NCBI GenBank assembly: GCA_008632985.1
Contig: QPGO01000288.1
Location: forward strand, 1-64,000
Direction of reading: 5' to 3'
DNA from: Psammoneis japonica
Lineage: Eukaryota
Length of the DNA stretch: 64,000 nt
Part shown: positions 25,085 to 63,509 of the stretch, piece by piece
Position numbering within the stretch: position 1 is the first letter of the stretch
Layout of the letters: each line of letters starts with the position of its first letter
Program-made: the position numbers and the translations under genes
The notes under the pieces: model-generated
What the model saw: only the letters and a program-made list of their open reading frames with translations
Told to the model about the DNA's origin: nothing
Databases searched by the model: none

Positions 25085-25915
25085 CGACTTTGGTTGCACA
25101 GCTTTGTGGCAGGAGCTTTGGCAACTTGTTTGACAGCTTTCACAGCTGCACTTTGACTCTTTTGTGGGTGTGCCATTTGGCAGCTTTGGCAACTTTGACA
25201 ACTTTTGGCACTTTTTCCAGCTTCTTTGGCAGCTTTGTGGCAACTTTGACAACTTTTGGCAGCTTCTTTGGCAGCTTTGGTGGCTTTGGCAACTTTGATG
25301 AGTTTTGTGAGTTTGGCAACTTTAAGAACTTTGATGACTTTGACAACTTTGGCATTTTGGCAGGAGGATTTTGGCAATGTTTTGACAGCTTTCACAACTT
25401 TTGCAGCTTTGGCAGCTTTGACAATTTCATCAACTTTGGCAGCTTTGACCCTGCTTTGTCAACTTTGACAACTTTGGCAACTTCCACAACTTTGTCACTT
25501 TGCAGCAATCTGGCAACTTTGGCTTGACTTTGTCATCTTTGGCATCTTTGTCAACTCAAGTCACTTTGGCAACTTTGTCAACTCAAGTCACTTTGGCAAC
25601 TTTGTCAACTCAAGTCACTTTGGCAACTTTGTCACTTTTGTCAGCTTTGGCAAGTCTCTGGTGACTTCATCAACTTTGGCAACTTCAGCTGGCAACTTTG
25701 TCAGCTTTGGTGAGTTTGTCAACTTTGTCACCTTTGGCAACTTTGTCATCTTTGGTGACTTTGTCAACTTTGGCGGCTTTGTCATTTTTGTCAACTTTGT
25801 CAGCTTTGGAAAGTCTCTGGTGACTTCATCAACTTTGGAAACTTTGGCTGGCAACTTTTGTCAGCTTTGGCGACATTGTCAACTTTGGCGACTTTGTCAA
25901 GTTTGGCAACTTTGC
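25085..25915. repeat. Degenerate 9-bp-period minisatellite (ggcaacttt/gtcaacttt/ggcagcttt) with higher-order units
   Basis: Continuous 9-mer periodicity. The 27-bp unit (ctttgtcaactcaagtcactttggcaa) occurs three times at about 25546-25626, and a ~70-bp block containing aagtctctggtgacttcatcaactttgg is repeated at about 25640 and 25800. Confidence 0.85.
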
Positions 25916-31315: not shown

Positions 31316-34300
31316 TTACAATTCATCCCAATCAATCGCGTTGATCTTGGAGTAATACTTCCCGTCGCGCCCTTCCTCGCGACGGACCTGGAAGTACCTA
31401 TCCGGCATATCGAATCCCGATTGCGTTGCAAGTTCACTCTTGATCATGTGGACAAACTCCTGCAAGTTGGGAGCAGAGTGAATGAAAGTGAGTTGGACTT
31501 TTTGTCAAGCAAAACATCACAACAGACGATATGAGCACAATTATGAATGACGAACCTGGTCGTGAGTGATCGTCACGAGCTGAAAGTTTTCCTGCCTGGA
31601 ACGAAGCGCGATAATCTGGGCTAGAGCGACCGCAAGTCCTTTCTTGTTATCGAAATCGAGGTTCACGGTGGGTTCGTCAAGAGCAATCACACCGCAGTTC
31701 AGGCAAAACGTTTCAGCAAGAGCCAAGCGAATCACAATGCACGCCAAGACACGTTGTCCGGCACTGCAACGGCCCCTCATGTCAAGCTTGGCGTTTCCTT
31801 TCGTCATGACAACGCGGTAGTTATAAGAACGCTTTGCTCTCGATCCGGTGTCCTGTCCGGCAATCAACTCAATGTTGGTGATGTCCTGTCCTTTATACGT
31901 CATGCTCCATAGGTCCCTAATGATCTTGTTGATTTCACCAATCTTTATATTGTGAAACCTCATTAGAGCCTTATCCACGGCTGTATAGTATTTGTCAAGG
32001 TCGGCTACGGCGATCACGGTTGTCTGATGCTTGATCATTGTCACCCTATAGCGCTCGTCGACGTCCTTGTACTCTGGAGTCTGCAGCTTTCGCTGGAGTC
32101 AATAAAAGTATCAACAAACAAGCAGTGAGCATACAATACCAGCGACGCCGCTCATCCAAGAAACGAACGATGCATACCTTGAGAGCACGGACGTTGTCCA
32201 CAATGCCTCCTCGTCGACCTTCATGCCGCGCTTTCGCATTCAAGAGTTCTGTCTTCCGCTTCCGAGCACGGTGCGCGTCTTGTTCAGCTGTTGCCGATCC
32301 TTCGATGTTCTGCACCTCCTTCTCGAGCTCTGCAATTTCTTGCTCGAGCGCGGCAATCGATTGCGTGAAACTGATTTGGCTGATATTGTCCTCGATATTC
32401 TTCTTGTGGCGCTGTTGATCGCCTACACTTTTGGTAAGAGCATCGAGCTTCGGAGACAGAGTCTGAAGCTCCTTCTCCCTAGATTGAACATTGTCGTTCA
32501 ACCTAGTAATCTTGGACGCAAGTCGATTAAACCCGTCTTCTCCTCGGTGGGAGTCCTCGTATCTATCAATCTGGCTAGTCAGTGCACTGAGAGCATCGAC
32601 ATCGTTCCTGAACAGAGTCACCGACTTGCTCAGCTGATTCTCTTCCTCTGAGGCCTGCGAACGAGCTCGCTGGCGTTTGGCTTCCTTTTCTCGGATCTTG
32701 AGACGAATTGGAGCAAGTTGCTCTTCAAGCTGCAGGATAAAAGTGTCAGAGTGCACTGCTACATTGATAATTTTGAAAATGACGGACACCGGTTCAGGAT
32801 ACTTACCTCTTTGTCCTCTGCTTCGAGGGCTTCTAATTTGTCTGTCAACTCAGTCCGACGAATCTGGGTTTCTTGTTCCTTCGCGTACCTTTCTTCCTTT
32901 TCCTTCAAGATTTGCTGAATTTTTTCCGCCTGTTGTAGACAAGAGTAGAAGAAACGAATTAGTAGTGAAAAAGAAGAGGCGAAACCCATGGCGATGGGAA
33001 TGTTACCTTTATCGAGTTAGCACTAATCTTATTGTTCAGCAAGGCTGGCAAACAGGAAGAGAACGACCAGGAAACAACAGCAAAGTGAGCAAAGGACGAG
33101 AATTCGTAGGATTAATTCACGTTGTTTTGACTTACTCATATCCTTGTTGAGCCGCTGAACCCTTGACGCCATCTCGTCCTTCCTATTTCGCTTGTCTTGC
33201 AGATCGCGCTCGACCTGCTTCAAATCACGCCCGCCAGTATCCGGAATCACCATAGACATACTCATGCTGGTCTCGTGCTTGCTTGTGATCTGCAAGCGCT
33301 TCTCTGAAATGCGCGAGGCTTCTTCGCACCAGCGTTTCGTTTTTTCAACAAGACTACGCAAGTCGTTTGCCTCCTTCTCAATGTCGCTGCTGCTATCTTT
33401 GGCCTTGTCAAGTGCGACTTGGTTCCTCTGGAGCTCCTCCTCCAACTTGGCGATATCCGCCTTCAACGTTGCGATCTCTTCGTGAACGCGTTCGTGTTCA
33501 TGCAAATCCTTCATTAAAGGCTCAAGAGCCGACTTCATATCCTGGTATTTGTCGGTACGGACACGATTCGTTTCGGCCCTGTCTGCGTTCAAGGGCTTCA
33601 TCAAGGGCGACGTTTCCACGTCCATGAGTTTCTGCATGGCGGTTTGCATAACTTGGATCTCGTCCGAGTCCATGTCGCGTTCGCAGCATGGGCAGACATA
33701 GCTCTTGCTGCCATCGTCGTCGCGAACCTCGCGCTGCGAAAAAGACCAAATGAGATTTCGGTGAATATCACGGGTAATAGAAACAAACCAAAGCATTACG
33801 TGAACTTACCAGTCTGTAGAGTCTTTTCATAATCTTTGAAAATGCCATCTTCGGAACCTCGTAAGACGACAGATCGTCAATCAGATTCGTAAGAGTATCA
33901 AGAAGATCTTGTGGAGAGACGCCTTCCGGGACTGCTACATTGTCGCCATGCTCTACTTCAAAGGCTTGCATGTTTCTGACCATTTGGCGGAACTCGCGCA
34001 TGCTTCCGTCCAGAGCTGTCATGCGACCCTGGAGTTTCTGCATGGACCTGCGGTTGTGTTCCAAAAGAGCGCTAGATTCGGAGACACTCTTTTGCTTGGC
34101 TGTTTCCTTTTCTTGAGCTCGATCAAGATCCGTCTTCATGTCGTTGTACTTGTCCTCCACCTTGTTTGCCCATTCGTGCATGGCTCCCACAAGCTCATCC
34201 TCATTACCATCTCCCTTTAGACCGGGCAAGGACATGGGTGAATCGATATTGTACTGTCGAAAACTCGATTCTTCCAAGGTAAGAGTTTCCTGGAGATCCT

Positions 34301-36433
34301 CCAATTCCTTGGCCGCCTGCTCTTCCAGCATAACTATTTGCTGCTGAGCCTCAGCATTGTCACGAAGCTCCTTGAGGACAAGCTCGTCGTCTTCGATTTC
34401 GCGTTTGAGCTCTTCAGATTTGCTTTCAATGTTTCGAATCTTGACTTGAGCGTCTGATTCTTTCTGTTCCTTGTTGAGCGCTTCACGCTCTTGGGCTGTA
34501 TAATTACAAGACAGATGGGCAGAGTTCAACGTGAGATTCAAAACAAATCCTCGAGGATTCAAGGCACAAGCCATACTGTCCGTACTTACCAATCCTGATG
34601 AGATCGCGTTTTGACTCTTCAATCTGAACAGCGAAAGCAAAACAGTATTGTCGAATGTTAGAGAGCCAAATATTACAACCGGGAAGGCCGATTCGACAAT
34701 CTTACCTCGCTCTTGCGCATCCTTGGGCCGCGATGAGTCTCCCTGGCCAACGTGTCAATTTCTTGCCGTGCTTCTTGGCGCTGCTGCGCAATCTTTTTTC
34801 GGTCTGCTCACCACAAAGCAAATACATAGTCGCATATATAAGATGCGCTTTACAAAAATCTCAGAAAACACAATCGACTGCGTCAATTTCGGTCTTACCG
34901 TTCTCGATTGACTTTTCCTTTCCGATCGCGTCTCCCAAGACAACTTGAAGCTGGTCTTCGGCGGCCTGAGACTTTTCACGAAACTGCTTGAGTTCATCCG
35001 TAAGCTCCCTTTCCTTTTGTTCCAGAGCTCTGGTAAAGGCCTGCATGTCTTCGGGGGAAATGGAAATGATGCTCCCCTGCGTTCCTCCACCCGCCGTCGT
35101 GGTGTCATCTTGAGATTCCTGAGTGCCGGTGAGCATGGTGCCTTGTGTCTGTGTCACGGCGAGATTGATGCTGTAAGTGTGAGCCATTTGTTCCATCTTG
35201 GAAAGACGGGACCGTAGCACCTTTTCGTGCGCCTCTTTTTCTGCCTCGAGCTTGCCGAGCTGTCCCTGTAGCTGCATTTCTTCTTGACGATAAGACTGAA
35301 TCTTGTTTTGTAGCGACTGAATGTTCCTCTCGAGGTCTTGTTTCTGCTGCTCTTGATCCGCGACTTGCTCGTCAAAGTCACTTAGCATATCCTTGAGTTC
35401 ACGAAGCGTGTGTTTCTCGGTAAGATTCTCCTGCAACATTTCCAGCTGCGTGTTGGCCTTGGTCCGTTCCCGTTCGAGCTCGTTTTGCTTGACTTCCAAA
35501 TCGTCCACGGCCGTTCCTATTCGGGAGAGTACGTCATCGGCACGACGAATCTCGTCATCCAACCCGTTAAGCTCTTCCTTGATGGTAACAATCTCTTCCT
35601 CAATCTCTTCCACTTGCTCATTGTGCTGCTCGAGTTCCTGACGACAAAGCTTGGCCGCGTGTTGGTGACTCCTGAGTCCCTCCACGTCGGCCTTGAGATC
35701 CTTGGCCTTGGCAGCATAGTCCTTGCTTGTAGCACGAATCGCCACGAGTGCCTTGGCGTATTTGGTCGAATCAAAAATGTCATCAAAGCGCTTCTGCAAG
35801 ACGGCGCCCTCCATGAGCGGCCAGGACGAGTCTTCTTGATGACAAAACATAACATGCTCCAAGACGGGTTTCGTCACCCCCATGATGGACGGTATTTGTC
35901 GATCGAGTTCGGTACACTTGTGAGACATGCTGATGCGTTCTCCCGTTTCGGGATTGTTGGAGCGTAGCACCCCGTCTAGAGCCTTGAAGCTGAGCGTCGT
36001 TTTCTTTTGCTGTACTTCCATACTTCGACTCACCACCATGGTGTTTCCGAGGCGATTGGTGAAGCGGAGCTTGATATTGGCCTTGACGACGGACTGGCCC
36101 ACGCTCTTGGGGTCGTGCACAAAGGCTTGGCCCGCCTTGTTACCCGGGGGTAACGAACCGGTTACGGCGTACTTGAGACTCTCAATGATTGTGGTCTTGC
36201 CACAGCCGTTGGCCCCGACAATGACAGTGACGGGATAGAAGAATTCAATCACCTTATGGTATCATATGGGAAGAGAGGATAGATGCATGGGTTCGTATGG
36301 GGTTTGTAAGGATCAATCTTAGCAACAGCAATGCGATCACAACGTCGAGAACACACACAGTTCGTACCTGCTCTTTTTCATCGGGCGAAAACGCACGCAC
36401 GCCTCGAATAGACAATTTGTTTATGGACGCCAT
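31316..36433 (-). CDS. RAD50: DNA repair protein RAD50, multi-exon
   Basis: Exon 1 [17 protein letters not shown]; Walker [23 protein letters not shown]; long coiled coil; zinc hook CPCC; signature MRGRCSAGQ; Walker B ALDEPT; ITHD; last exon ends DWDEL* at 31316. Confidence 0.96.
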
Positions 36434-37249
36434 TACACAATCCTTGCCTTGTTGTCACAACGGCGTTACGTATGGGTACAATGCTCTCAGCAACACAAGT
36501 CTGTTCACGCCGTTTTGTTTGTTGACTTCTGTCGTCAATCGCGGTCTGCGGCTTTGGAGCTTTTCGCATCCACTTCTTGCGATCTTTTCCTCGCGCGCGA
36601 AAATCTGCCGGGAAAAAGGCGCGCACGAGCTCCGAACGCGAAAAAGGCACGAGGCGATGTCTTTCGAGCCCATTTCCACCTCCTGATTTACCTGACTTTC
36701 GCTTCTTGTCGGTGCTCCCCTCCATCGTTGCTGGCAGATGATGGCAGATAGAGGCAAAAGAGTTTGATGAAACAAAAAAGAAAAAAGAGAGAGATAAAGA
36801 TTGAAGATGAGAAATGAGGGTCTGGGGTCGTGGGTGGGTGTTGTTCTCGGTGTCGTCGGATCGGAACTTTGTGACCTGATGACATCATCATTCCACCAAA
36901 AAACAGGTGAGGTCACTAAAAAATCATGGCGAGAGGGCAACAGGTGCATTGTTGTTGCATGCTGTAACAACTGTTCCCCTCACTGACACCCACTTTGTCT
37001 CTGTTGATCACACAGCCCAACGTGTCTTGTTTGAGCCTGATGCGACGACTGCGTTTCGCAGTTTGGCTTGTTCTCATTTTCTTGACATGCAACACTGACG
37101 CATTTTTAGAACCTTTTTGATCTCGCTCCACTGGCAGCTTTTGTTGCAATCCAACAACTTCTGGTTGTTCAACATGGACTTTTGACGATGGAGCCTGCAA
37201 GGAGAGAGCATGGTTCATGCGCCAGCAGCATCAAACGTGCTGGGCCGTG

Positions 37250-39752
37250 AAGGGACAATCTCATGAGGCCCGGTGGCAAAATCGATTCCAAGAACTGGTT
37301 GAGTTTCACGAGAAAAATGGGGACTTTTGTGCACCCACAAAGACTCCTTTGGGTGCGTGGACAATCAGACAATGAAAGGCATGCCGAAAAAAGTTGCAAA
37401 ATGGCAAATCAGTGCTCACCGATGCTCAGGAAGAACAGCTTGGAGGAATTGGATTTAATTTCGAGTCATCAGGACAAACTGATCAGTGGAACCACATGTT
37501 TGACACGTTGTTGGAATTCAAGGAACTTCATGGCCACTGTCGTGTCCCGCGGCATTGGGTCACGAGACAGCGCAAGACTTGCAAGCATTGTCAAAACAAA
37601 AGCAAGCCTTGCTCAATGACTCCAGATTGTGTGAGAGCTCTAGAAGATGCAGGGTTTGAGTGGTCATTGCCAAAAAGAGGTGGTCTCGACCATGACAGGT
37701 GGGACCGCATGCTCGGCAAATTGTTGGAATTCAAAGCTGTTCATGGCCACTGTTGTTCCCAAAGCATTGTTCGGAAAATGAACACCTCGCACTTTGGGTC
37801 ACAAGACAGCGCAAGACTTGCAAGCATTGTCAAAACAAAAGCAAACCTTGCTCAATGACTCCAGATCGTGTGAGAGCTCTGGAAGATGCGGGATTCGAGT
37901 GGTCACCCAAAAAGGGTCCGGATTCCGATGGGAGTAATTGGAAGCGCATGCTTGATGAATTGTTGGAATTTAAGGCCAATCATGGGCATTGCCATGTGCC
38001 TTGCAACTACGTTGAAAACAGACGCATCACACGTTGGGTCACAACACAGCGCAAGAGCTGCAAGTGTTGTCAAAACAAAAGCAAACCTTGTTCAATGACT
38101 CAAGATCGTGTGAAAGCTCTGGAAGATGCCGGCTTTGAATGGTCGGTTAAAATGGGTCTGGGTCTCAACGAGAGTGCTTGGAAGTGCATGCTCAACGAAC
38201 TGCTGGAATTCAAAGCTGTTCATGGGCATTGTCGTGTCCCACAGCATTGTTTGGAAAACAAATGCCTCGCACTTTGGATCAGAACACAGCGCAGGAGCTG
38301 CAAGCGTTGTCAAAACAAAAGCAAGCCTTGCTCAATGACTCCGGATCGTCTGAAAGCTCTAGAAGATGCAGGGTTTGAGTGGTCAATGCCGAGAAGAGGT
38401 GGTCTCGACAATGACAGGTGGGACCGCATGCTCGATGAATTGTTAGAATTCAAAGCTGCTCATGGACATTGTCGTGTCCCAATGTCTCATTCGGAAAACA
38501 AAAGCCTCGCACTTTGGGTCATGACGCAGCGTAGGAACTACAAGCGTTGTCAAAACAAAAGCAAGCCTTGCTCAATGACTCCAGATCGTCTGAAAGCTCT
38601 GGAAGACGCAGGATTTGAGTGGTCAGTGCCGCGAGGAGGGGCTTTCGACAATTCCAGTTGGAATCGCATGCTCAACGAACTGTTGGAATTCAAAGCTGTT
38701 CATGGGCATTGTCGAGTCCCAACATCTTATTCGGAAAACAGGCGACTCGCACATTGGGTGATGAACCAGCGTGCATGCCTTAAGCGTCATCAAAACAACA
38801 AGCCTTGCCAGATCACACCTGATCGCATAAGACAATTGGAAGATGCAGGATTCGAGTGGTTTCGCAGAGACGCTATCAGCGAGGAGTGGAATTTGATGTT
38901 AAATGAGCTGTTGAAATTCAAGGCAATTCATGGCCATTGTCGTATCCCGCAGCATTGTTCGGAAAAGTTCTAACTACAAGAAGTTTAAAAACAAAGAGAA
39001 GCCTTGTCCCATGACGCGTGATCGGATAAGTGCATTGGAAGATGCCGGATTTGAGTGGTCGGCAACAACGCGGAAATGGAATGACTGGTTCAATGAGTTG
39101 TTGGAATTCAAAGCTACGCATGGGCATTGTCGTGTCCCCAATGACTCAGAGAATAAAGCCCTGTGTCGTTGGGTTGCGAGGCAACGTACGATTTCAAAAG
39201 CTGTCAAGACAATACCCAGCCATGCGCACATTGACGACAGACCAGATAAAAGCATTGGAAGATGTAGGATTTGAATGGTCGGTACAAGGAAAGGTATGGT
39301 ATGTTATGTTTGATGAGCTTTTGCGATTCAAAGCCATTCACGGGTATTGTTGCGTGCCAAATGTCTATCCGGAGAACAAACGACTCGCCCGGTGGGTTTC
39401 TCAGCAGCGAATACATTACAAGCGTTACCAAAACAAAAAGAAGCCTTGTTCAATGACGCCGGGTCGCATTAAAGCATTGGAAGGAGCTGGATTCGAATGG
39501 TCAGCGCAAACGAGTAATTGGAATGCCATGTATGATGAGTTAATGCAATTTAGAGCTGTTCATGGACATTGCCGTGTGCCAACCAACTACTCGGAAAACA
39601 AGCGCCTCGGACATTGGGTCGCGACCCAGCGTAGAAGTTACAAACGAAGTCAAGATAAAAAACAGCCTGGTTCATTGACTTTGGAACGAATAGCTGCATT
39701 GGAAAATGCCGGGTTTGAGTGGTCAGCCTATACTGTAACCAATAAGGTTTAA
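37250..39752 (+). pseudogene. Tandem helicase-associated (HA) domain protein, about 11 repeats, copy 1 (frameshifted)
   Basis: Repeated WxxMLxELLEFKAxHGHCRVP...L..WV..QR...R..ALEDAGFEW at a period of about 220-240 bp. Frameshifts near 37755, 38965 and 39190-39230. Confidence 0.88.
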
Positions 39753-40189
39753 CTTCTTTCCAGTTCTTCTCTTGAGGAGATCGTGTTGAAGGTCGCGGTT
39801 GCCTGTTGCCTGGATCCAATCAATACATGTCGAGTCGAACGGCAATATCACCAAGGCGATGCTCCAAAAAGCTTAAAGCTAGCAAGTGAACCCAAAACAA
39901 CTTGGGTGGGAGCGCGATGCAATCTGTGACACACAGGTAAGAGAAACGAACGGCCTAGGTGTCACTTTGACGCACTATGTGTCGCATATCACAGTCTCGT
40001 AGAGTTTTCTTTATTCAAGTTAGTCTTGTAAAAGTGCGAACTCCGGCCTCAGTGTCTGCATTCATCGCCAATCACGTATATTATGCAAAGCCGTATCAAG
40101 ATTGTCACTTTTCGCCAACTCAATCAATAGACAACGTGTCGACCCGTGTCGTACCGTACGGGACGACAACCAAATCCTGAGGTTCTTGA

Positions 40190-40418: not shown

Positions 40419-41401
40419 AGAAAAGAATCTTGTCTGATTCTCACGACGAAAAGTAGCGGCAAACGCCTCGTAATCGACGTAGCCTAGTGGACGCATGACC
40501 TCGTCCCAGCTACTTTTCAGAAACTCAATGGCCGCTGGATCCATCTCTTGTGGATGTGGATTCACCACCACTTTGGCCCCTGGAGACAACTGAGATAGAT
40601 CTCTGACCCGACCCAGTTGCTTGGCCCTCTCGTATGGCTCATCGAACTTTTCAAGATGAGTAGTCATGTACTCCTTGGTGCTCATGCTTGCAACCTGTTG
40701 AATGAGCTCGTCTTTGCATCAATGTCCATAAACTTGGCAAGCATCTGTATTGACGGGACCACGTCTTTCAACATGTCCTCATAAATCAAAACCAACACGG
40801 AAGGACAATTCAGTAGTGTATGGTACTCGCGGTAGTAATCCCAGAGGCTTGCCCGGCTTCCATCTTGTTTGCCCTTGACAAACGGCGTTTCACGAACAAA
40901 GGTGGACAGGTCCATTCCAACTACAAGAGGTACTTGTTTGGCAAGCAAAAAATTGTAAAAGGATAGTGCCGTCTTTGACGGATCCCTAATTGTAACAACA
41001 TACTTGCACCCTCGGTAGATGCTTGCCATTCGCAAATGTGATTTGAAGACTCGAGGAAAGAATCGACTTTCGTTTGGATCATATCCGATGTCCCAGCTCA
41101 ATGTAGGCCATGGTACAACTTCATAAATGTTGTTGAAATCCACGTGACCACCCGTTCGAAGCTGATGACAAATCCAAGTCACAAGGGTTGTGCCCGTTTT
41201 CGGAAAAGTGGCAACGATAACATCGGTGGGTTTCACTGAAAATTCTTCCACAGCTTTTCTTACAGATTCGACCGACATCATGGAATCAGGATGACCAATA
41301 GGTACATAACCTAGCTCTTTCGGGAGAGGACATGGAAGCTGCTGCTGAAGATCAGAATCATCATTGGGCGGATTGCTACTCGCACTGGTGCGGCTCGTCA
41401 T
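40413..41401 (-). CDS. Cytosolic-type sulfotransferase (Sulfotransfer_1)
   Basis: DVIVATFPKTGTT (5'-PSB loop), RVFKSHL, IRDPSKTALSFYNF (3'-PB), LIYEDM. One frameshift near 40714 restores ..DELIQQVASMSTKEYM. Confidence 0.88.
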
Positions 41402-41574
41402 CGTCACTTTTCGGTGCGGTGTTGTGCGGTGGCGGTGTTGTGCGGTGCGTGCGGAAGTGCCGTGCGCGTGACTCACCCACTCGTGACTCAAAAACAGACA
41501 CCATCCCAGCATCATTCAACTTTGACTCAACTGTGCCACAGCACATGTGGTCCCCTGTTTGCATCTTAACTGGT

Positions 41575-42095
41575 GCAAAGTCCCTGTCAATCTCTTTTGA
41601 GGCTGGCTCAGCCATCTCTTTTTCTGCAGCTGTAGCTTTGTCTTTCGCAATTTGCACTTCTCCCATGCAAGCAAAATTGAGGCCTGTTTGTTTCCGTTCA
41701 GTCCACCAGAGCAGAGGTTTCCACTCATCACCAATTTCTGGTCAGTTCTTGAGAAGAGAACAAAATTGCAGATTGTGTTGCGAGGGCTTGTTGTTCAAAT
41801 GCAAACAGCGTGAAATGTGTCGTGTTCATGCTCTGTCAAAGGACAGCTGTTGGAGCTGAGACCTGCTTCACAGCCAATGAAGATGAGCAGCAATGCCGAT
41901 TCCAAAAGTCGGTTGACTTTGAGGAGAAGAGTGGGCATTTTGTTGCATCAACAAGCTCTCCTTTGGGCTGTTGAAGTGACAAGCCAACAACACAAGAGAG
42001 CTCACTTGAAAAAATCGAGCAATTGCAAATCACCTGTTGCAGAAGAGCCCAGCTGAAAGACATTGGTGTTGACCTTCACCAACCTCCCTGAGATG
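41575..42095 (+). repeat. Third, truncated and more degenerate copy of the HA-gene 5' region
   Basis: Colinear similarity with 61185-61650 (aagtccctgtcaat..gctggctcag..gcagaggtttccactca..ctgagacctgct..tttgggctgttg..gagcccagctgaa). Confidence 0.75.
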
Positions 42096-42099
42096 TTGG

Positions 42100-45000
42100 T
42101 GGAGGTAAAAAGGATGGTGCAGACCAACAAACAAGGTTGCTTTCCAACTCTTTTTTTTGTGGACCAAAGTGCGCTGCCGCAGCATGAGGTCTCAACTTCA
42201 AAAGAGTTTGGCTGGCACCTGCAAAGATGGCTGAGTGTTGTGACCTCTCCCGTCCACAAGTCAAGCGCTGGCTGCAGGTCAGAGAGGGCTTCATCAAACT
42301 CCAGAATGACCTGGTCTCTGTCACTGTGATCTGCTTTTTTTGGGGGGGGGGGGGGGGGGGCACCGCTCGTTTCTGCCAATGAGCTGGTGCTCAAACTTGA
42401 GCTGCATGTCAAATGAGGCAAGGAATGGGCAACTGAAGTGTGGAGTGATTGAGCCAAATGTGCCAAACTTTGTTGCACATGTGTTGGCTGCTCTGCACCT
42501 CAGAGCAATCCATGCCAGGCAGCACTGCTGTTGTGTCAGCAATCCAAGGGTGGTGAGCATCAATGCGCTGCCCTTTCTTCTCGTTGCTCTGGTGCTTGGG
42601 GGATTGTGACATGTCATGCATTTGCACAATGATGCAACACAATGAACACAGCATGAAAACATTACATCATGTGTGCAATTTGTGTAAAATGTGCTTGTTG
42701 CTGGCAAATCTCTGCCGGTGGAGAGATTTGCTCCAAGGGAGCGGCACTTGCAGCTCTGTTGTGACAGCAACTCATCACAAATTTCATTGTTGGAGGTTGA
42801 GATTTTTTCCCCTCTCTGTCCACTGAGGTTGAGATTTCCCCCCATCTGTCCACAGATTGAGTGCAAGAAAAAAAGGAGTTAAAAGTCAACATTGAACTTT
42901 CCAAATTGTTGCAAGAATGGTCTCCCAGAGCTTTTGGTGAGTGCGCCATCCAAAACAAAAATTGTGCAAATTGTTTGTCATCCACATCTGAGAACCTTTC
43001 ATTTGACGCATTTTTGATGCAAGCATGCTCAAGTCTGGTGGTTGAAGGCTTGACAAATGGTTGCTGTGATTCACAAGCTCAGCCATTTTGGTCTGCTCAA
43101 GATCCCAAGGTGATCCAGCCCTCCAGACAGAACAGCAAAGCTGTCCAGCACATGGCTGGCATTGAGTGACCCCCTTGTGCCAGGGAGGTGCCTTCCACAC
43201 CCCACTTTGGAGACTCAAACATCATCTAGCCAGTGCAGTGCTGTGATTGTTGCCAGAGCAAAAAATTGGCTGTTGTTGTTTGAACTTTTCTGTTGTTTGC
43301 TGTTTTGGACATTTCTGCACTTCAGCAACTTCTCAGATGTTTCAGGTGCTCTCCCATCATTGGCAAATTTGCATTGCTGTTCCCTTTCTCAATGGCTTGC
43401 TGCAGCCACTCTCAACTTTGCTGCTGAGTGAACTGTGGCAACTGGAAACACCACCTTCACTGTCCTTCTGTCCATTTGGCTGGCATCACAGAACTTCCAT
43501 GCATGAAGAAGTGTCTCTCCCATTGTCCTTTTGTTCCTTGGAGTGTGCTCACTTGAAAGCACCACTTCCAAGCACTTTCTTGAGCTTTGATGCCATCCTC
43601 ATGGCCTGTCTTTGACTGAGATTTTTGCAAGCATCAAAAAAGATTGTTGCTTGCTTTGGGGGCTGAGGCACCACTTTGGCAAAGAGGTGCACTTGGAGAG
43701 TGCATCTGAAAAAAGTGCTGTTGCAGCAACTCTCAAGCTTGTCAAACAGCTCATTGACCTGGTGGTTGAACTCACCATCTTTGTCAGCAAAGACCACACC
43801 TCGGTTTTGCACAACTCTTGTGCAAAACAACCTTTCAAAGTGAGCACCACAGAGCTTGTGGAGGTGGCTGATCTCTTCATCTGCAAGCTTGGTTTTGTCA
43901 ACTTTTCTTTTGCAAATGCTTTCATGGCTGAAAGAAGCCTTTCTGAAGGGTGTCTGAGAAGTTGCTTGTGTTGCCAGGAAACTCTTCCACAAGAAACTGG
44001 GGCCATGACTCAGCTCTTGTGCACCTGCTCAGCACAAGAACCTCCTGCCAATGCACTTTGTGGCAGACTTCTGTTTTCCCAAACAGGGTGTTGATGTGGA
44101 GATGTGATCAAAAAAACAAGTGGAAAAAAAAAAAGTAATGTGATCAAACCCTGAAGTGAACATGATGTTGGCTGGTGTCACCTTGGAAGTCAGGGGCAAA
44201 AACAAATCCTTCCCCAGAGTTTATCTGCAAAGGGGCATTTGTGCCTTCTTTCAACAGCTCAGCCATGCTATCATTCTGTCCAATGATGTGTTGACTTTCT
44301 GTGTGGCAAGTTGCTCACTTTGAGGGAAGGATTTGTCAATGTTCTTGTTTCTGAAATTTGCAAGCTCCGCAATTCTTGAGGGCCAAACTGGTGCAGGCTT
44401 CAGGGCCTTTCTGAAGAAACATTTTTTCTGTCTTGCTTTGTTGTGCAAAGATGAACGGAGCTTTGAAACTGGGCTTCTTGTTGTGGGATTCCCAGTTCTG
44501 AGCTGTGATGGAGTTGCCCCTCTGGCGCAGTCTTCACAACAATGTGGCCTCAAACTCAGTTTGTTCCTTTGTGCTGCACAAGCTGAACAGAGCCTCTTGT
44601 GCTTGCAAAGGTCATTGTGCGGGTGCAAGGAAGCAATGTGCTTTGTAGGCAGCAGTTTTCACTTGATCATTGTGCTGGCAGTTCAGGCAAACCAGCTTTT
44701 CTCAAACTGTTTTCTCCCACTTGTGGCCAGCTGGGCCTCTTGACAAAATGGCTGCAAAGTGAACAAATGCAGGCACCCTCACAGTGCTTGTAAACTGCAT
44801 TTTTTTCATTGTCAAAGAGAGAGCAGACTCCCATTGCCCATCCAACTGCCAGGCACCAGCAATGTCATCCAGTGCAACCCTGCTGCAATGGTCTGCTCTT
44901 GAGATGAGCTGGGAAACTCAGAGGAAGAACTGCCCCACAGCAAGCTGGCTGGGGGGCAAGGAGAGAAAGCCAGCTTGACCCAAGACCAGCAGAGGTTCTT

Positions 45001-48000
45001 GGCCAGGGGGGGGGGGGGGGGGGGCATCTGCCCCAGTCTCTGGGCACTTTCCTGGTGCTGGTGGATGATGACAACAACTGCATCACCTGGGCTCTGTGGG
45101 CTGCAGCTTGGCTGACCCCACCTTGACACCAATGGCAAAAACAGCTTGAGCAGACACAGACAAAAGCTCCAGCAAGATGGGGAGGTGCAGGGCTTGTGCC
45201 CTTCATTTTGTTGACCATTGCAACAGCGCCCTTTTGCACTGATCAAACTCCACCCCACCAAGCCACAGCAAATTGAGAAACAACACCCACCCTCAGAAGG
45301 TTCGCCATCTGAGGCACTCATGGTTGAGATGAGGGGGCTTTTCACAAGTGTTGATTGTTTCACACAAACAGGAGTTGACATTTTCTGTTTGAAACAAAAA
45401 ATTGGGCCTTTACATCTTTTTTGTGGTTTCCTCCACCAGTGCAAACACTGTGAGCATGCCAGCTGGATCAGGAGTGACTTGGCTGCCTGCAAAGCAGAAG
45501 TGGTAACAACCAGGTGTGAAAATTTTTCCACACAAACTCTGCAAGAGAGTCCTGCAGAAGTGGTTTTCTGTGCACAAGAAATTTCCAGATGCAAAAGAAA
45601 AACAAGTGCTGTCAAATTCTTTGCATGGCCAGAATTGTTGCTGAGATTTGGTGAAGAGCAGAAAGCAAGAGAAAGAAAGAGTTGGGGGTGTGGCACAGAA
45701 AGCAAACACCTGTTGGTCAGTGCTGATGTGCCACCTCATTGTTTTGTGGTTCCATGTGGTGCAAAAAGGCATGTGGATTTAACACAGTGGTGCAGTTTGT
45801 GCTGGGGAGTTTTGCAGGACTGAACAGAGAAGCACCTTTTAAACTGTTGCTGTGCAGATGTTGGCACAAATTGCCGCAATGCATGCTCAAACCACTTTCC
45901 ACCATTGGTTTGGTTGTGAAATTTGTGCACTCTGCACATTCTTTGTGCTTGCAAGAGGGCAGCACAAGTCAGTGAATGAGAGTGCAGCCAAGAAGTGTGC
46001 AGCAAGAATTGACCATTTCCCCTCCCAGTGTGTTTTTCCTTTTGTGCAACAACTGTCAAATCAATGTGAAATTGTGCAGCAAGAAAAAAACGTTTTAAAT
46101 GCTGACAAGCACCCCACCACAAATTTGTCCCTCGGCTCAACAACCTGCTGGCCACACAAGTGTCAACGACTGTTCCTTGGGATGAACTGGCCTCCAACTC
46201 AGCTGCTCAGCACTTGCAGCATGACCCAGGTGCATCAATGTCTGATGCGTCTGCCACCCACCCCAGACCAAGGCTGTTGCCTCACATTTGAGGGTGGATC
46301 ATTGAGCAGAGGCACATTTTGAGCAGCTCATGATTTTGCAATTTTCCTTTTCTTCATTCAAGTGTTGCATCTGAGCACACCCCAAACACCAGTGAGTGCA
46401 TTTCTGCTCCTCACCAGGGCTGTGCACATGTGAGCTGCACTTGCCAGTCTTCAAGCACCAATTGTTGGTTTTGGCATGGTTGTTGTGCTCAACAAACTGC
46501 TGCTTTTTTTACACAACTGCGCTGCTTGGTTGGTGTGGTGTGGCAGACAAGCCAGAACAACTTTCCAGAAAATGCCAACAGCAAGCATTTGACTGGCTGA
46601 ACACATTGTGCAGTCACAACCATCATCCGCATGCTCTGTGGTGTCTCTCACAAACAATGGACAAAACTCAACCTGCAACTGAAATTCTGTTCAGGCAAAT
46701 GTGCACATTTGGCAAGATGCGCACCCTTCTTTCAGACCTCTTGAAAAACAGGCCTCTGCTTGACAATCCTCAATCCATTCTGAACTTGGACAGATTTCAG
46801 CACAAAGCTGAAATTCAGAGAAAAGGATCTTTGAACAATGACTGCACAATTTGAACAAACGAGAGGTCAAAATCAAGTGCAAAGTGCAGTCATTTGCAGT
46901 TGCTTGAGAGGAAGCAGTTGAAAATTCTGCATTCTGACAAATTCTGAGGCAGCCACAGCCTGTGCTCAGCACTCACCAACAGAGCAACAACATGACAGTG
47001 ACACAAATGTCATTCATTGAATGTGATGATGTGATTGGCATCAAATTTCAGCATGCATGTAAAATTTGTCAGTGTCTCAGCATTTTCTTTTGTGCTGGTG
47101 AGTGTCTCTTGGCCTCTTGGCTGGTTTGTGGCAACAAAGGCATGGGCAGTGAAGTGACAATCAAAAGATTGATTCACTTGGCTGCTGGTTTTTAAGATCA
47201 CATCTGTTGCAAGAGGTTTTAGAGCACTCAGGTTCAGAAGACAGGAATCCCAGGGTGGCATGTGTCAGTGAAGAGGTGCAACAAAAACAGCAGCACAATG
47301 AAAAGCTGAGGTGCACAAAGCAGTGGCAGTGGTTGCAGTCAGAACCACTCAAAGGCCTGTGTCCAAAACAGGATCCAAAAAGGGAAACTCCTCAGATGAC
47401 ACAGCACTGGCCTTTGTGGTTTCCAACACACCACACAGGGCAATTTTTGCACCATTTTTTTTCTGTTGAGGAGTGCACAGTGGGGGGGATGTCATGCAAA
47501 CATTGATCAAAATGAAGCAAGTGGAACAAAAATGACAAAGCCACCCATGACAACCAGAAAGCATTGGTTGGCAGCATCTGGCATGTCACAAACAAGTGCT
47601 GCAGCCCATCATGACCTCAGTCAGCCAGCTCTCCCCCAAGAGTTTTTGGTCTCAAAAGTGCTGCAAAAAAGCACCCACTTGTTGTGAGTGCCAAGCTGCC
47701 CCACAAAAGAACTCTGGAATGCCAGATTTGCTTAAAAGCAGTGCCAGGGCCCCAGTGGAAATGCCAAGAAAGTCCAGAATGTGGTGAATTTTTGATGTCC
47801 CTGGCACTGATTCTATGCTGGAGCACAATTTCTGCACATTCCAGACTTTTTTTAGCTTTTTTGCTGGGGCCCTGGTGATGCTTCCATGCAAATTTGACAT
47901 TCCCGAGTTTTTCTAAATGGCAGCAGGCTTTGGATCCTCCATGTGGGCAGTTTGGGACATGCCCTTCTCCATGCTGTGGCACTTCAAATTCAAAGCCTTT

Positions 48001-49200
48001 TGCATGGCTGCTCTTCACTGTGTCATGGCACCCCCTCTGTTCTCCACCACACCCTCTCCCAGCAAGGCACAGCAGCACCTGCATTGCAAAGCAACATCAT
48101 GGTCAGACAGCAAGCAGCAGAGAACAAAAAGTTGCAGCATTTGCAGCTCCCACCTTGCCAAAAGCAAGCATTTCTGCTGTTGCACAGATGTCAGCTCCTT
48201 GGGGGGCAGGCAAATGCATCGTGATGTCCTTGCCACTTGTGGCCATCAGGTGCTGTGCTCTTCTCTGCCATCATGGAAGCTTCACATCAAGCACACCTTG
48301 TGTTCCTGTTAGAAACAGCTTCTTGCAGTTGTTTGACAATGTTTGTGCTGCTCCAGCTCCATCTCTGACTCTGTCTTGCTCCTGTTTGTTCCCACGTTGA
48401 CTGTCTTTTGAGTTCAATGCAGCAGCAGCACTTGGTGTGGCAAATGCCAAGATGTGCTCCAGACCCTCCAAGATGACATGCATCACACTGGCTGCATGTG
48501 ATGAGGGATGAACAAGTGGCTCTTGGCTGAGAATGTGAGGTGCATTGCTTGATCCAGACACAAGGGGGGCTGCCCCCCCCCCCCCCACTTCTTGGTGCAG
48601 CAAGCTGGCAAGTTGCTGCCAAATCTTCAAGTGCTCTCAGCAAACCAACAGGCCTGCTCAATGAGCCCATGCCCTCACCAAAAATGTCATGCTTTTCTTG
48701 AAATGAGCTTTGTCCTCACTCAGAGGCCAGATCTTTGGAAAGCAAGACTTGCTTGCAGCTCATTGCTTGAAGCTCTCATCTCTCTGTTTTTGTCCTTTGC
48801 TCCTCCCAGCTGCCCCCCACCAATGCTTGACCAGCAACAACTTGGCTGAAGATTTTGTGTGCATTCATTGGAAGTGACCACCACAGACAATGGCCACGAC
48901 CATGATGCACGGCATTTGGCTTGGCAACTGGAAAGTTGTGGCTTGACTGCAATGAGTGGCACAACACTGGTGAAAAATGGCAGTTTGTCAAATGAGAACT
49001 GCACCAAATCCAACAATTGGCACTTGAGGTTGACAAGTGCAGTTCACATGTGCTCCGAGCAGGTCTGAACAGCCCTGATGGGGGGCAGACACACAAGTGT
49101 TTTGGGTGCTCAGATGCATCGCAAAATGACACGGGCGAAGTGCAGGAAAATTGGGCTGCTGCCAGTGCCATCCGGTTGCGCAGGAGCACCTCCTACTTAT
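42100..49200. mobile_element. Nested degenerate repeat/TE relics, families unassigned
   Basis: CpG and TpA nearly absent; many Tyr-free spurious ORFs. A TIR-like motif tgatgtggagatgtgatca at about 44092 is shared with 23612. Confidence 0.55.
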
Positions 49201-51599: not shown

Positions 51600-54500
51600 T
51601 TACATGTTCATTTGGAAATGTCAATTGGTTTTCTCTCTCTCTACATTCAATGCTCGCAACAATGCTGGTTTTCAGATCTCTGCATGGGCATCCAATCAAA
51701 ATGGACAATGCACACCTTTTGCAGCAAAGACAAATCAACCCATCTGGCATTGCAGCATCCTTTCAATCCACACTCAACAGAGGCGAGCACACGCCAAAGA
51801 CTTGCAGAGAGAACAAAAGGCTCTTGAGCACACAAAACAAGAACAGAGTTGATGCACCCCTCTTGTTTTGAAGCTTGGGCCCTCAAGTGGCACATGGTTT
51901 GGCTGGCTCTGCAGCTGGTTGGGAGGTTGATGGCTTTTTCATGACTCACAGCTTGAGGCTTCTTGTTGGCACACGAGCTCGCCCGTGCAATGTTGCCTTT
52001 CGAGCCTGCTGCTTGCTGGAGCTGAGATCATGTGGACAGCTCTCCACATGCCTGGGCTTTGTCATTCAAATGCTCAATCACAAAATCATCTTCTCTTGCA
52101 CTGTGGCTGCTTGGCTTTCATCAACAAAATCTGCAGCAGCCCAGGCCATCCTGAGCACTCGTGACAAAACAGCTCTCCTGCAAAACCCTTCTGCTTGTCC
52201 CTTCCCCCCCAGAGTGGTTCTTGGCAACAGCGCCACCCACAAACCAAGCTGCAGTCACGACTGTTTGCTGAGCTGCCAGCTGAGAAATTAAAACCAAGGT
52301 TGAGAGCCAAGCATGAGACCTCCTGTGAGATGTTCCCGCAACAAGCCTCTCCACAAAGCCGTGCTGCACATGGGGTCTGAAGCAAGAGGCACATGTTTTG
52401 ATGCACAAGCACATGTGCAATGTCACCTTTGGAGCACGCTGCTCACTGGAGCTTGAGCAGAGGACAGCTCTCTGTGTGCAAACCATGTCTGTCAGATGCT
52501 CAGTCACAAAACATCTTCTCTTGCTGTGGCTGCTTGGCTTCCATCAAAAGAAAGTTCCCACAACCCAGGCTGCCCCAGCCACCATTGACAGAATGGCTCC
52601 TGCAAAACTTTTCTGCATGTTTCCCTCCTCCCCTGCAGAGCTGCTCTTGGCAACAGTGTTGTCTGCATGCCAGGCTCCAATCAAGATGGTCTGCCAAGCT
52701 GCACCAGCTGAGATGCCCAACTTGAGTTTGCAGGCTCCCAGAACCACAAGACACACAGAGGGCAGCAATGCACATCTGGTGCTGGTGGCAATGCTGAGCT
52801 CTTCATTTGCAGCTTCCCAGGGGCACACCCACACCTTCAGAACACCAGCACAACCACAAGAGTTGCCCTCCTTGTGCAGTCACAACAGCACGTTGCACCA
52901 TCTGCAAAAGGAGTGCAGGCAGCCTGGCTCCTGGGCTGCATGCTGACCCCACATGCCACAGCTTTTCACAGCTGAGCAAGAGACGCCAGTGTTTCAAAAA
53001 CCCTGAGCCAAGGTTGGAGCTGGCAGGAGCTTGTGTCATTGGCACCCCCAATGCCACAGCTGCAAAATTGCACACAAGCCTCCTCAAGCTCGTGTTTGTC
53101 ATTTGTTGGCACAGCAGAACAACTTTGAGCTTGCTGTTGGCACAAAAAAGCTCTGAGTGAGGTTGGGCCCAAGAGTCATTGAGCATGCTGAGTGCACAAC
53201 CTGAGACATGCCAGCAACAAAACTCTCTGCACAGCAATGCAGCCAGAACCTCTCTCACTCTTCTCTCAAGAGCTTGCTCAGGACAACACACCAGGGTTTG
53301 GAAAGCAAGCAGCCAAGCTTGCATGTTTTTCTTCTCCCTGGCCCTCCCCAGATGCAGCCTTTGAGCCAATGGTCACCCTGAAGTTGCAATGTGCACCCAG
53401 CTTTTGCCCCTGTGGCAACCACCCCAGACCACAAAGAAGAAGCCAATGAATCTCTGGCCCTGCTTGCATGGTCAATTTTTGTGTGCATCGAATGGTTGAA
53501 TCCCCTCCTTTTTCCCTTTTCCATTGATCGGCCACGAATGTGAAAAAATTGCCGCATTGTGAGAGTGATTCAGCCGTGCCAATCAGATCAGAAGCTTCGC
53601 AGTGAGCGCCAACCTCTCACGCTCACGTTGGCAACAAATCATTGCATTGCGTGGTGCAACCTCGCTGCCGGTGCAGCACACCCTGTGAGATGACTGGCAC
53701 AAACGAACATCTTTCCGAGAAACACAACAAACACCACCATGCAGTTTTGACCTTTGATTTCACAATCATCCAACAAAGAACAATGGCACCAGGCAGGCAC
53801 CAAGAAAAGTTCAAAGCACAAGAAACAAAGTGGGAAGAAGTGGGCTGTGCTTTGAAAACCCAGGAGCAGCAGCCAGACGACAGCAGAGAGAGAGGAAGAG
53901 CAGAAAAATTGCTGAAAGATTTTGGCTCTCAGCAGTGGCACCACAAGCACTCAAGTCCCTCCCAGCACAGAGAAAATGATCTGCAAGAATTTGTGGGTGC
54001 AGAAGCACGGCAGCAGAGCCCACAGAAAGGAGGGGTGGGAAGCCCCCAGCATTTGTTGACCCCCCCTTTTGTTCCTGAAGGTGACAAGAGAGAGTCTGGG
54101 TTGTGAAGATGCAAGTCAGCCCAAAGACACAAGTGGTCCCAGCAGCTTCATGCAAAATGATCTCTCAGGGTCATTTGCACTTGGCTCTGGCAAGCCAAAA
54201 AAGGAGGCCTCCTCGTTGGCAGTGCTCCAAGTGCAAAGTTGCTCATTGAGCAGCTGGTGCAAGAAAGTGAGTTGAGCACTCTTGCTGCAGATGCCCAGAT
54301 GTCAACAGCATGTTCTTGCCTTTCTTGACACTGCTCCACATCCTCGTGATGGGGGACCTGACAATGCCATGGCCAGCATCACCCAGCATGCTGTTGTTGC
54401 TGCAGATCTTGGTGCCACGGCATGTGGTCACCTGCGGGAAAAGAGGGAGGCACACACATGTGCAGCCAGGGGCATCTTTTGAGCAAATCCAGCCATGCTG

Positions 54501-55330
54501 TTGCCAGTCAGACCTTTTGGCAAAGACCATCAATGTTGCTAAAACAGAAGGTCAGTGTGCAAAGCAGCCTCACAACTGCTTTAGAGACCTTGTCCTCCCA
54601 TTGATGTGCCTCACCACCAGCATTTTTTTGATGCTGTGGGGTCTCAGCAGCTCAGGTGATGCCCATTTTCTCTTGCAGATTGTGAGAAGCACATGGCGCA
54701 CAACAGTTTTGCACACTGGGCTTTGGCCCAGAGCAGCAAGGGTGATCTGTGATCTGGGCACATGGGTGCAGCAGGCCACAAAGACAGACAGCTCCAAGCA
54801 TGCCAGAAAAGTGCGCACTTCATGCTCCACTCCTTTTTGTCAACCAAAATGTTGACATGGCTGGAGCACTCTGTCAATGAGATGAGACTCCACCCCAACA
54901 TTGTGCTTGGAACACAATGCAGTGGACAACCAGGGGCATGTTGTTGATGATTTTGAGGTGACACTTTTTTGGGTCAAAGTTTGATCAAAAAGTGGATGAC
55001 ACAGGCTGTGTGCCATGGCCCACAATGACTCACTGACACAGTGTGGACTCTCACAAGAGGTTGGCCATGATTTCATGTGAGGAGAATGGTTCTGCCCCTG
55101 TGAATTGCCCACTGGTTTCTTAGAGTTCCAGGTTGCCATTGGCAGCCAAAGATGAGCAAAGACAGATGGAAGGTCTGGCTGCTGCTCTCAGAGAGTGTCT
55201 GCCAGATTTCAGCTCACCAGCAGAGAGCTGGAGCAACAGAGGGTGTTCATTTCATTCAATTGTGAGAGGGAGCGAGTCAGGACTGCAGTGCAAAATGTTC
55301 AAAGAAGTGCAGAAGCTCTCTCGTGGAGGC
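51600..55330. mobile_element. Degenerate TE relic block, including a possible DIRS/Ngaro-type RNase H remnant (+ strand, ~54100-54600)
   Basis: Same composition signature. Residual order CEDAS..G / GSFALGSGK / HILVMGD..N-AMA / INVA..HNCFRD resembles YR-retrotransposon RNase H (DAS..G, LxxxDNxxA, NxxADxLSR). Confidence 0.5.
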
Positions 55331-63500: not shown

Positions 63501-63509
63501 ACCAATAAA

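Follow-up and report, generated by a model that had tools for sequence, protein, structure and literature searches.

The stretch of DNA analysed here, called the window throughout, comprises 64,000 bases of the raphid pennate diatom Psammoneis japonica (positions 1 to 64,000 of the forward strand of contig QPGO01000288.1, GenBank assembly GCA_008632985.1) and contains two arrays of repeats of the HA domain (PF03457). The question raised by these arrays is why tyrosine and arginine, present in the repeats toward their 3′ ends, give way to cysteine and histidine in the repeats toward their 5′ ends. An earlier note on this DNA, made from the letters alone, read the replacement as a 5′-to-3′ gradient left by a mutational process that changes CG and TA to TG or CA. 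Such a process is indeed seen in the window, most completely in four blocks that are almost free of CG and TA (referred to below as islands), and the observations support the view that the front of the arrays is an intermediate state of the same conversion. The gradient is a plateau followed by a step, in part inherited, with nested boundaries for TA and CG. The arrays are best understood as recording, short of saturation, an apparently undescribed process that turns CG and TA into TG or CA.

The arrays hold 11 HA units in copy 1 (u0–u10, 37265–39722) and 9 in copy 2 (u0–u8, 61434–63480), 20 in all, with unit limits set by the GFEW ends; where a single unit is meant, its copy is prefixed (c1u1, c2u1). 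The identification of the domain and the figure of about 20 units, both given in the earlier note, were borne out: the Pfam model matches 37696–38973 in 6 stretches with 294.5 bits (gathering cutoff 28.4, E = 1.7e-89), and the other three open reading frame (ORF) pieces of the arrays score 141.7, 71.9, and 31.0 bits. Judged by their sequences, the two copies are paralogous HA arrays and both are pseudogenes, with no intact reading frame through the repeats of either copy 1 or copy 2. In copy 1, in addition to the stop codon of u0 listed below, u1 lacks codons 35–43, and the frame is shifted in u2 (a 1-base deletion in codon 32), u7 (a deletion covering codons 39–50), and u8 (a 1-base deletion and a 2-base insertion). 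In copy 2, it is shifted in u3 (a 2-base insertion), u4 (two 1-base deletions), u6 (one 1-base deletion), and u7 (a 7-base insertion), whereas u8 carries a TGA inside its HGH motif and has a truncated end. Composition is expressed below as f, the ratio (CG+TA)/YR, in which YR stands for all pyrimidine-purine steps.

36865–37264, plus strand: non-repeat 5′ flank and N-terminal region of copy 1, depleted in TA and CG (f of 0.15 in both 200-base bins)
37265–37465, plus strand: unit 0 of copy 1, the divergent first HA unit (E = 5.5e-14 against the HA family profile), interrupted by an in-frame TGA at 37373–37375
37466–38622, plus strand: young tandem units u1–u5 of copy 1, rich in Cys and His (Tandem Repeats Finder (TRF): period 240, 5.0 copies, 78% matches)
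38623–38859, plus strand: unit 6 of copy 1, the last of the TA-poor zone, with TA low (3 sites) and CG normal (13 sites)
38860–39722, plus strand: old units u7–u10 of copy 1, with the dinucleotide content of the background
39723–40126, plus strand: non-coding 3′ flank of copy 1, duplicated with copy 2 (87–89% identical to 63481–63905)
41561–42095, plus strand: third, truncated module of 5′ flank and unit 0 (70% identical to 61168–61649)
61234–61628, plus strand: 5′ flank and unit 0 of copy 2, depleted (f = 0.18, p = 4e-5 against the background)
61629–62346, plus strand: young units u1–u3 of copy 2, rich in Cys and His (TRF: period 243, 3.3 copies)
62347–63480, plus strand: units u4–u8 of copy 2, orthologous to u6–u10 of copy 1 (identity 96, 89–92, 96, 96, and 89–91%)

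Units u6–u10 of copy 1 are one-to-one orthologues of u4–u8 of copy 2, and the 3′ flanks that follow them differ by 22 transitions and 26 transversions. Units u1–u5 of copy 1 and u1–u3 of copy 2, five against three, form a young subfamily with 70–88% mutual identity; it is poorly resolved internally in the unit tree, and its closest relative, sister or nested, is the pair c1u6/c2u4. Unit 0 is 63–67% identical between the copies. Its conserved Arg50 codon reads TGA in copy 1, TGC in copy 2, and CAC in the third fragment. That fragment makes up the left margin of island 3, directly next to the beginning of a sulfotransferase gene; it has an f of 0.08 and matches the HA profile weakly (E = 0.74).

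Depletion of CG and TA along the arrays and in the islands

The values of f upstream of copy 1 are 0.52 and 0.32 (36465–36864), followed by those of the flank listed above, by 0.20 in u0, by 0.14, 0.16, 0.20, 0.20, 0.27, and 0.27 in u1–u6, by 0.37, 0.30, 0.44, and 0.37 in u7–u10, and by 0.39–0.44 in the 3′ flank. In copy 2, the upstream bins give 0.46, 0.31, and 0.20, unit 0 gives 0.15, u1–u4 give 0.11, 0.21, 0.23, and 0.29, and the units behind them 0.43, 0.31, 0.40, and 0.33. Taken as a whole, the front zone has an f of 0.19 in copy 1 (p = 8e-19) and 0.20 in copy 2 (p = 3e-12) against 0.39 in the background, whereas the rear parts do not depart from it (p = 0.96 in each copy; f = 0.39 for the rear and 3′ flank of copy 1). 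For TA alone, the front zone departs from the background with p = 2e-21 in copy 1 and 3e-14 in copy 2, and for CG in copy 1 with p = 4e-7. Unit index and f are correlated (Spearman coefficient +0.92 in copy 1, n = 11, p = 7e-5; +0.87 in copy 2, n = 9, p = 0.0025), although these p-values overstate independence, as the units are related by descent.

The two dinucleotides do not share a boundary. There are 0–1.3 TA per 100 bases through c1u6 and c2u4, 2.7–4.5 behind them, and 0.5–1.0 in the flank, whereas CG is low only through about c1u4 and c2u2, so that the loss of TA extends further in the 3′ direction. Nine reference codons per unit, seven for Arg and two for Tyr, were counted as converted when they read TGY or CAY. 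Their numbers are 4, 5, 5, 3, and 4 in u0–u4 of copy 1 and 1 in each of u5–u10, and 3, 5, 4, and 4 in u0–u3 of copy 2, followed by 1, 0, 0, 0, and 2 in u4–u8. The graded pattern described earlier thus holds as a contrast between front and rear, but the reference codons form no smooth slope; they give a plateau with a step. The front of the array is affected as claimed, although the depleted zone begins farther upstream than had been thought, near 36865 for copy 1 and near 61234 for copy 2; in copy 1 its sharp upstream limit is a CG-rich stretch (36465–36664, 22 CG in 200 bases) between a RAD50-like gene and the HA zone. The numbers of TG and CA are nearly equal in each unit (20/22, 23/24, 25/23, and so on), with no strand asymmetry, and by our count the Arg codons were changed to TGY about 8 times and to CAY about 10 times.

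The same shift is found close to completion in the four islands, in which the observed/expected ratio is 0.12 for CG, 0.04 for TA, 1.82 for CA, and 1.81 for TG, with the base composition of the background. In 500-base bins, f is 0.01–0.12 in the islands, mostly 0.02–0.05, compared to 0.39 in the background. None of the islands has an assigned strand.

1700–3900: island 1 (f of 0.02–0.09), with a Pfam family in 0 of its 2 ORFs of at least 150 residues
19200–26550: island 2 (f of 0.02–0.09), with no Pfam family in six frames
41500–49050: island 3 (f of 0.01–0.08), with no Pfam family in six frames
51600–55250: island 4 (f of 0.02–0.12)

Of the eight island edges, six are sharp to within about 100 bases, and the other two to within about 400. 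In the latter (1600–1900 and 19100–19400) TA vanishes some 300–400 bases before CG, which is the order seen along the HA arrays. No Pfam family was detected in any of the 22 island ORFs of at least 150 residues or in the 12 translations that read through the two largest islands in six frames, and no HA units are present in the islands other than the weak third fragment. When the islands were recoded as purines and pyrimidines, no long terminal or inter-island repeats were found, only three short internal pairs. Long spurious ORFs appear in all six frames because TAA and TAG are absent from the islands.

The three pairs of intra-island duplicates show when the conversion took place. One member carries CA where the other carries TG at 24 of 105 aligned YR steps, compared to 5.0% expected (p = 3e-10); the control, double transitions at steps other than YR, gave 6.4%. 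A single pair in island 4 (51966–52308 and 52398–52736) contributes 12 such discordant steps. Since a double transition between CA and TG needs a CG or TA ancestor struck on opposite strands, the mutations followed the duplication, and on the evidence of these pairs the island state is mutational and arose after the internal duplications. When CG and TA in the background sequence were converted at random in silico, TG and CA reached about 2.0, and some of the secondary dinucleotide shifts were reproduced as well.

Two further features were noted in the islands. An inverted repeat of about 85 bases (46424–46508 and 48972–49053), with arms that are 94% alike in purine/pyrimidine coding and discordant between CA and TG at 7 of 22 YR steps, stops precisely where island 3 ends on the right; its arms may represent the two ends of a 2.6-kb element. 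Island 2 contains, at 25176–25914, a degenerate tandem array of the 9-base unit TTTGGCAAC, with about 79 copies and 63% matches.

Recurrent and inherited changes in the repeat units

All the peptide strings on which the earlier reading had been built are present in the arrays. The 3′ units include PTNYSENK and RRSYKRSQDKK in c1u10, as well as PNVYPENK and IHYKRYQNKKK (with TAC AAG CGT TAC) in c1u9. The 5′ units include RKTCKHCQNK (TGC AAG CAT TGT) in c1u1 and c1u2, RKSCKCCQNK (TGC AAG TGT TGT) in c1u3, PQHC(L/S)EN in c1u4 and c2u2, and PMSHSEN in c1u5 and c2u3. The codon changes at the front are from CGY to TGY or CAY, and from TAY to TGY or CAY. Counted per unit core, Cys and His together number 10, 11, 9, and 10 in u1–u4 of copy 1 against 6, 7, 6, 6, 5, and 4 in u5–u10, and the polarity is the same in copy 2, as had been stated, with 12, 10, and 9 in u1–u3 against 6, 6, 6, 6, and 4 in u4–u8.

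The ancestral state was assessed with a family profile of 1119 full-length HA units (after 1452 domain hits) from the 187 best foreign proteins. The diatom HA-domain family is large, with 17043 library representatives at E ≤ 0.001, many of which have 2–12 repeated stretches; the named matches are from Seminavis and Cylindrotheca, and the best identity to the arrays is 34–45%. Among the foreign units, position 36 is Y in 36%, C in 2.4%, and H in 6.5%; position 53 is Y in 49%, C in 1.4%, and H in 5.7%; position 50 is R in 92% and C in 0.3%; and position 69 is R in 69% and C in 0.2%. Position 55 is K, R, or L, with C in 0.5%, and position 56 is variable, with Y in 5.5% and C in 0.5%. The arrays belong to this family but differ from it as pseudogenes with Cys at positions 53, 55, and 56. 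Homologs from other species do not, as a rule, carry Cys or His at the positions in question (Cys in 0.2–2.4% at 36, 50, 53, and 69), although a few foreign units read QHCSEN (protein P0002). Ancestral Tyr and Arg, as proposed earlier, are upheld at the conserved positions 36, 50, 53, and 69, but not at position 56, which varies within the family.

The changes in the young units are of two kinds. At the Arg codons 15, 31, 41, 55, and 69, CGY, TGY, and CAY coexist among these units, which implies at least two independent hits per codon; at codon 50, TGC is found in c2u1 and c2u2, and the changes of Tyr36 need two events (TGT and CAT). Asked whether everything could go back to one ancestral unit that was later amplified, the data give a divided answer: the change of CG to TG or CA is recurrent, whereas Cys53 (in place of Tyr, in 6 of 8 units), Cys56 (in 8 of 8, and also in u8), and Val/Leu70 (in place of Ile) are inherited within the young subfamily, one event each. 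Double transitions between CA and TG are in excess when the three 5′ modules are compared (27 of 210 steps, 12.9% compared to 6.3% expected, p = 4e-4) and in four independent pairs of young units (8 of 195 steps, 4.1% compared to 1.7% expected, p = 0.02), but are not enriched in old paralogous units of similar divergence (11 of 344, 3.2% compared to 4.3% expected). The process is strand-symmetric, confined to blocks, active after duplication, and removes TA before CG.

Differences between units were also polarised by the states of the other units, with 77 of 164 remaining unpolarised in young pairs and 38 of 71 in old pairs. In the young pairs, the polarised changes include 16 losses and 8 gains of CG, 28 other transitions, and 26 transversions; by our arithmetic, CpG transitions in the arrays are about 2–4 times faster per base than other transitions. 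A patch in c1u7 (38935–38960), directly 5′ of the frame-shifting deletion of that unit, reads CAG CAT TGT as in the young units, where its orthologue c2u5 (62680–62700) reads TGT CCG TAC; this patch is probably the result of gene conversion among units.

Contigs of the public DNA run X1, which may be the window's own assembly data, match the arrays without any difference at 37100–37285, 37300–37458, 37441–37594, and 38874–39023, among the 10 matches listed of 92 pieces over 37100–40100. These identical pieces contain the stop of u0 (37373), the deletion of u1, and the deletion of u7 (at about 38960), so that in the part they cover the sequence does not look like a product of faulty assembly. 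At 37672, 37772, and 37994, in u2–u3 of copy 1, the sole covering X1 contig (depth 56–67) differs from the window, each time by CG against TG or CA; at 37994, it reads CGT (Arg) where the window reads CAT (His). These three differences are a weak hint of either ongoing CpG change or a close paralogue. The summed word depth of X1 contigs that are at least 95% alike over 37200–39725 is 2–11 times the flank level (about 55–60), which indicates that more near-identical copies or alleles of the HA gene are probably present in the genome.

Cause of the depleted zone

The likeliest cause, to which we would assign a probability of about 0.5, is that the most repeated parts of the gene underwent sub-saturating exposure to the undescribed process that converts CG and TA. 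The arrays would then be paralogous pseudogenes in decay, members of the large family of HA-repeat genes of diatoms, and their front half, made up of about 400 bases of 5′ flank, u0, and the young units (for TA, the next unit as well), would be partly converted, island-like DNA. A domain-restricted, strand-symmetric process would act on the self-complementary YR dinucleotides CG and TA, yielding TG or CA, and would have remained below saturation on the array fronts. In coding terms, it would turn Arg codons CGY and Tyr codons TAY into those of Cys or His, and CGA into the stop TGA. Because TA would be removed faster than CG, the TA-poor zone (through c1u6 and c2u4) reaches beyond the CG-poor one (to about c1u4 and c2u2), and these nested boundaries, when read as protein, give the appearance of a 5′-to-3′ gradient. 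The zone may have been targeted for its repetition, that is, for its homogeneous tandem units and for a dispersed 5′ module of which the window holds three copies, probably by way of a repeat-associated DNA modification or chromatin state in which marked bases deaminate or mispair. The CG step would correspond to a change of 5-methylcytosine to T, and the TA step would be directed at adenine or thymine. Much of the TA loss would be older than the amplification of the units and the split between copies 1 and 2, and would have been inherited since. Somewhat short of an even chance, in our estimate, is the broader proposal that an undescribed domain-targeted mutator of this diatom, perhaps a genome defence or a by-product of symmetric modification, converts CpG and TpA into TpG or CpA by means of a cytosine arm and an adenine or thymine arm.

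Several results weigh against graded hypermutation of repeated DNA in this form. The substitution spectrum does not differ along the arrays, with transitions to transversions of 112:52 in front unit pairs and 49:22 in rear ones (p = 1.0), CpG-involved changes of 34 in 164 and 14 in 71 (p = 1.0), and TpA-involved changes of 11 in 164 and 7 in 71 (p = 0.43). Transversions grow toward the 5′ end, being 10.4, 4.2, and 4.2% in the positional pairs of u3–u5 compared to 0.5–2.5% in those of u6–u9, so that a process making transitions only is insufficient, and older coalescence, turnover of units, and relaxed past constraint contribute. Polarised TA changes in the young pairs are 3 losses and 6 gains; the CpG arm has thus been visibly active since the units diverged, and the TA arm has not. 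The boundary of the zone lies at a homologous junction in both copies (u6/u7 in copy 1, u4/u5 in copy 2), and copy 2 is therefore no independent replicate. The rear units and 3′ flank are duplicated too (about 1.5 kb, 87–96% identical) yet have background composition, in contradiction to a simple homology-triggered rule. Lastly, the islands yielded neither protein domains of transposable elements nor long terminal repeats, and are thus at most putative repeats.

The earlier note had offered two forms of the process, spreading from the 5′ flank or targeting of the most similar tandem units. The latter accounts for the units from u1 onwards, and in copy 1 without u0 the identity within the array and f-based depletion are related with a rho of −0.85, but it does not hold for u0 or the flank, nor for the rear units, undepleted despite an identity of 89–96% between copies. 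Spreading is unlikely, and a positional process at the 5′ end of the gene in general, whether spreading from upstream or coupled to transcription initiation, with intensity falling with distance, appears improbable. It would agree with the fact that both zones begin upstream of u0 and end 1.5–2 kb downstream, with the rise of f from its lowest values at u0–u1 toward u6, and with the further 3′ extent of the TA loss, as expected from a gradient of dose. However, no island adjoins copy 1, the sequence upstream of which is normal or CG-rich and belongs to the neighbourhood of an ordinary RAD50-like gene; most island edges are sharp to within 100–400 bases, with no long-range leakage in the window; and the reference codons form a plateau and a step. 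The balance of TG and CA in each unit and of TGY and CAY among the Arg codons also argues against deamination of the non-template strand, and with no strand bias, transcription-coupled deamination is unlikely. A founder effect followed by ordinary decay is a possible, though unlikely, explanation, in which one TA-poor, Cys-bearing unit was amplified and the CpG hypermutability of a methylated pseudogene struck the Arg CGY codons. Consistent with it, the young units form one poorly resolved clade with copy numbers of 5 and 3, share Cys53, Cys56, and Val/Leu70, and have a majority sequence that holds only 2 TA; the spectrum is alike at front and rear, gains of TA at least equal losses, and stops or frameshifts are spread over the full length of both copies. 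What speaks most directly against it is that the 5′ flank and u0, which are unrelated to the young units, are equally depleted (f = 0.16, p = 9e-9 in copy 1; p = 4e-5 in copy 2; 0.08 in the third fragment), so that an amplified variant unit with subsequent decay cannot explain the zone. In addition, double transitions are enriched in the 5′ modules and not in the old units (Fisher p = 2e-5), a saturated version of the signature surrounds the locus, and a depletion of TA exceeding that of CG is not predicted by decay of methylated CpG.

Two further alternatives concern the nature of the altered residues. That the 5′ units rich in Cys and His represent a selected innovation, such as a metal-binding CxxC or HxC variant of the HA domain, is very improbable, even though members of the family conserve the HGHC motif (H in 73% and C in 68% at positions 29–30) and units of the QHCSEN type exist in some foreign proteins, such as P0002. 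Stops, frameshifts, and deletions lie within and upstream of these units in both copies, the positions of Cys and His vary between units, Cys at 53, 55, and 56 does not exceed 1.4% in the foreign units, and the non-coding flank has the same dinucleotide shift. The profile scores of c1u1, c1u2, and c2u1 also drop to about 58–66 bits, compared to 82–95 in u5, u6, u9, and u10 of copy 1. Just as hard to credit is an artefact in which modified CG and TA were miscalled as TG or CA in a long-read consensus. A miscall at a symmetric site from either strand would give exactly TG or CA, and all three differences between X1 and the window are of that kind; but X1 contigs with word depths of about 55–67 equal the depleted flank, u0, and u1 without a difference among the pieces listed, the paralogues also differ by indels and transversions, and at codons 31, 36, and 55 the outcome, TG or CA, agrees between orthologous units.

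To our knowledge, no repeat- or domain-directed point-mutation system has been established in diatoms, and no description of the CG/TA-to-TG/CA signature was found in the limited collection of literature searched. Repeat-induced point mutation (RIP), known from ascomycete fungi, acts mainly on CpA, which it turns into TpA, so that TpA is enriched and CpA and TpG are depleted; it depends on a RID/DNMT-type enzyme and a premeiotic stage, and leaks into adjacent single-copy DNA. The process in the window resembles RIP in its domain-restricted transition mutagenesis, in the sharply bounded altered blocks, and in the destruction of coding capacity. Independent strand hits on each copy after duplication are seen as well (24/105 island steps and 27/210 steps of the 5′ modules), but a general action on duplicated DNA, as in RIP, would be doubtful given the rear halves. 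It differs in that TpA is the dinucleotide most removed (observed/expected 0.04) and CpA and TpG are the products (1.8), with GC content unchanged; in that the changes of Tyr to Cys or His require A to G or T to C, which no cytosine-directed system makes; in a transition:transversion ratio of only about 2 in the HA arrays, compared to the almost exclusive C to T and G to A of RIP; and in that the rear halves, 87–96% identical, are unaffected. RIP proper was rejected for its wrong product, since here TpA is removed instead of made.

Decay of methylated CpG, as in the silenced repeats of vertebrates and plants, shares with the arrays the recurrent change of CG to TG or CA, with both strand outcomes at the same Arg codons and with 16 losses of CG against 8 gains, as well as discrete blocks with low CpG and an excess of TpG and CpA, but it leaves TpA alone and cannot give either the 80–96% loss of TA or the order of TA before CG seen here. 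Transcription-associated mutagenesis at the 5′ end needs an asymmetry, with C to T and A to G confined to the non-template strand, whereas the arrays in the window are strand-symmetric. PMC9998398 describes methylation of transposable elements by DNMT5 in Phaeodactylum; according to the same source, diatoms also carry DNMT4 enzymes, relatives of the RIP factor RID, whose function it leaves open. CpG-targeted, RIP-like hypermutation of basidiomycete transposons is reported in the part of PMC3318451 that was accessible; it is similar to the present case in changing C to T in a CpG-containing context outside ascomycetes, and is repeat-associated there, but it is fungal, that part of the source describes no TpA arm, and in the present case a link to repeats is putative. 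N6-methyladenine at ApT was rejected as a candidate because it involves the wrong dinucleotide and because the authors of PMC12695648 report no compositional footprint in most species; the text of that paper does not contain the word "diatom".

If correct, the joint removal of TpA and CpG would be a new mutational signature, requiring A to G or T to C in a TA context, and the process would be able to strike the repeated parts of a cellular gene and not just gene-free blocks. Past information is lost in the fully purged islands and retained in the HA arrays, where an ancestral state defined by outgroups, 20 aligned units, and two copies allow rates, order, symmetry, and targeting to be measured. 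For annotation, it would follow that apparently novel repeat proteins rich in Cys and His and poor in Tyr, as well as long ORFs free of TAA and TAG, when they lie in such zones, are mutational debris rather than domains.

Genes around the arrays

The window is gene-dense nuclear DNA, and its background is filled by ordinary housekeeping genes, among them those for FGAR amidotransferase, enoyl-CoA hydratase, Mog1, and cyclophilin. The RAD50-like gene upstream of copy 1 (31544–36261, minus strand) consists of several ORF pieces. For the sulfotransferase ORF that precedes island 3 (40685–41515, minus strand), the best relatives with a name come from Amphora, Seminavis, Pseudo-nitzschia, and Fragilariopsis, with 52–69% identity.

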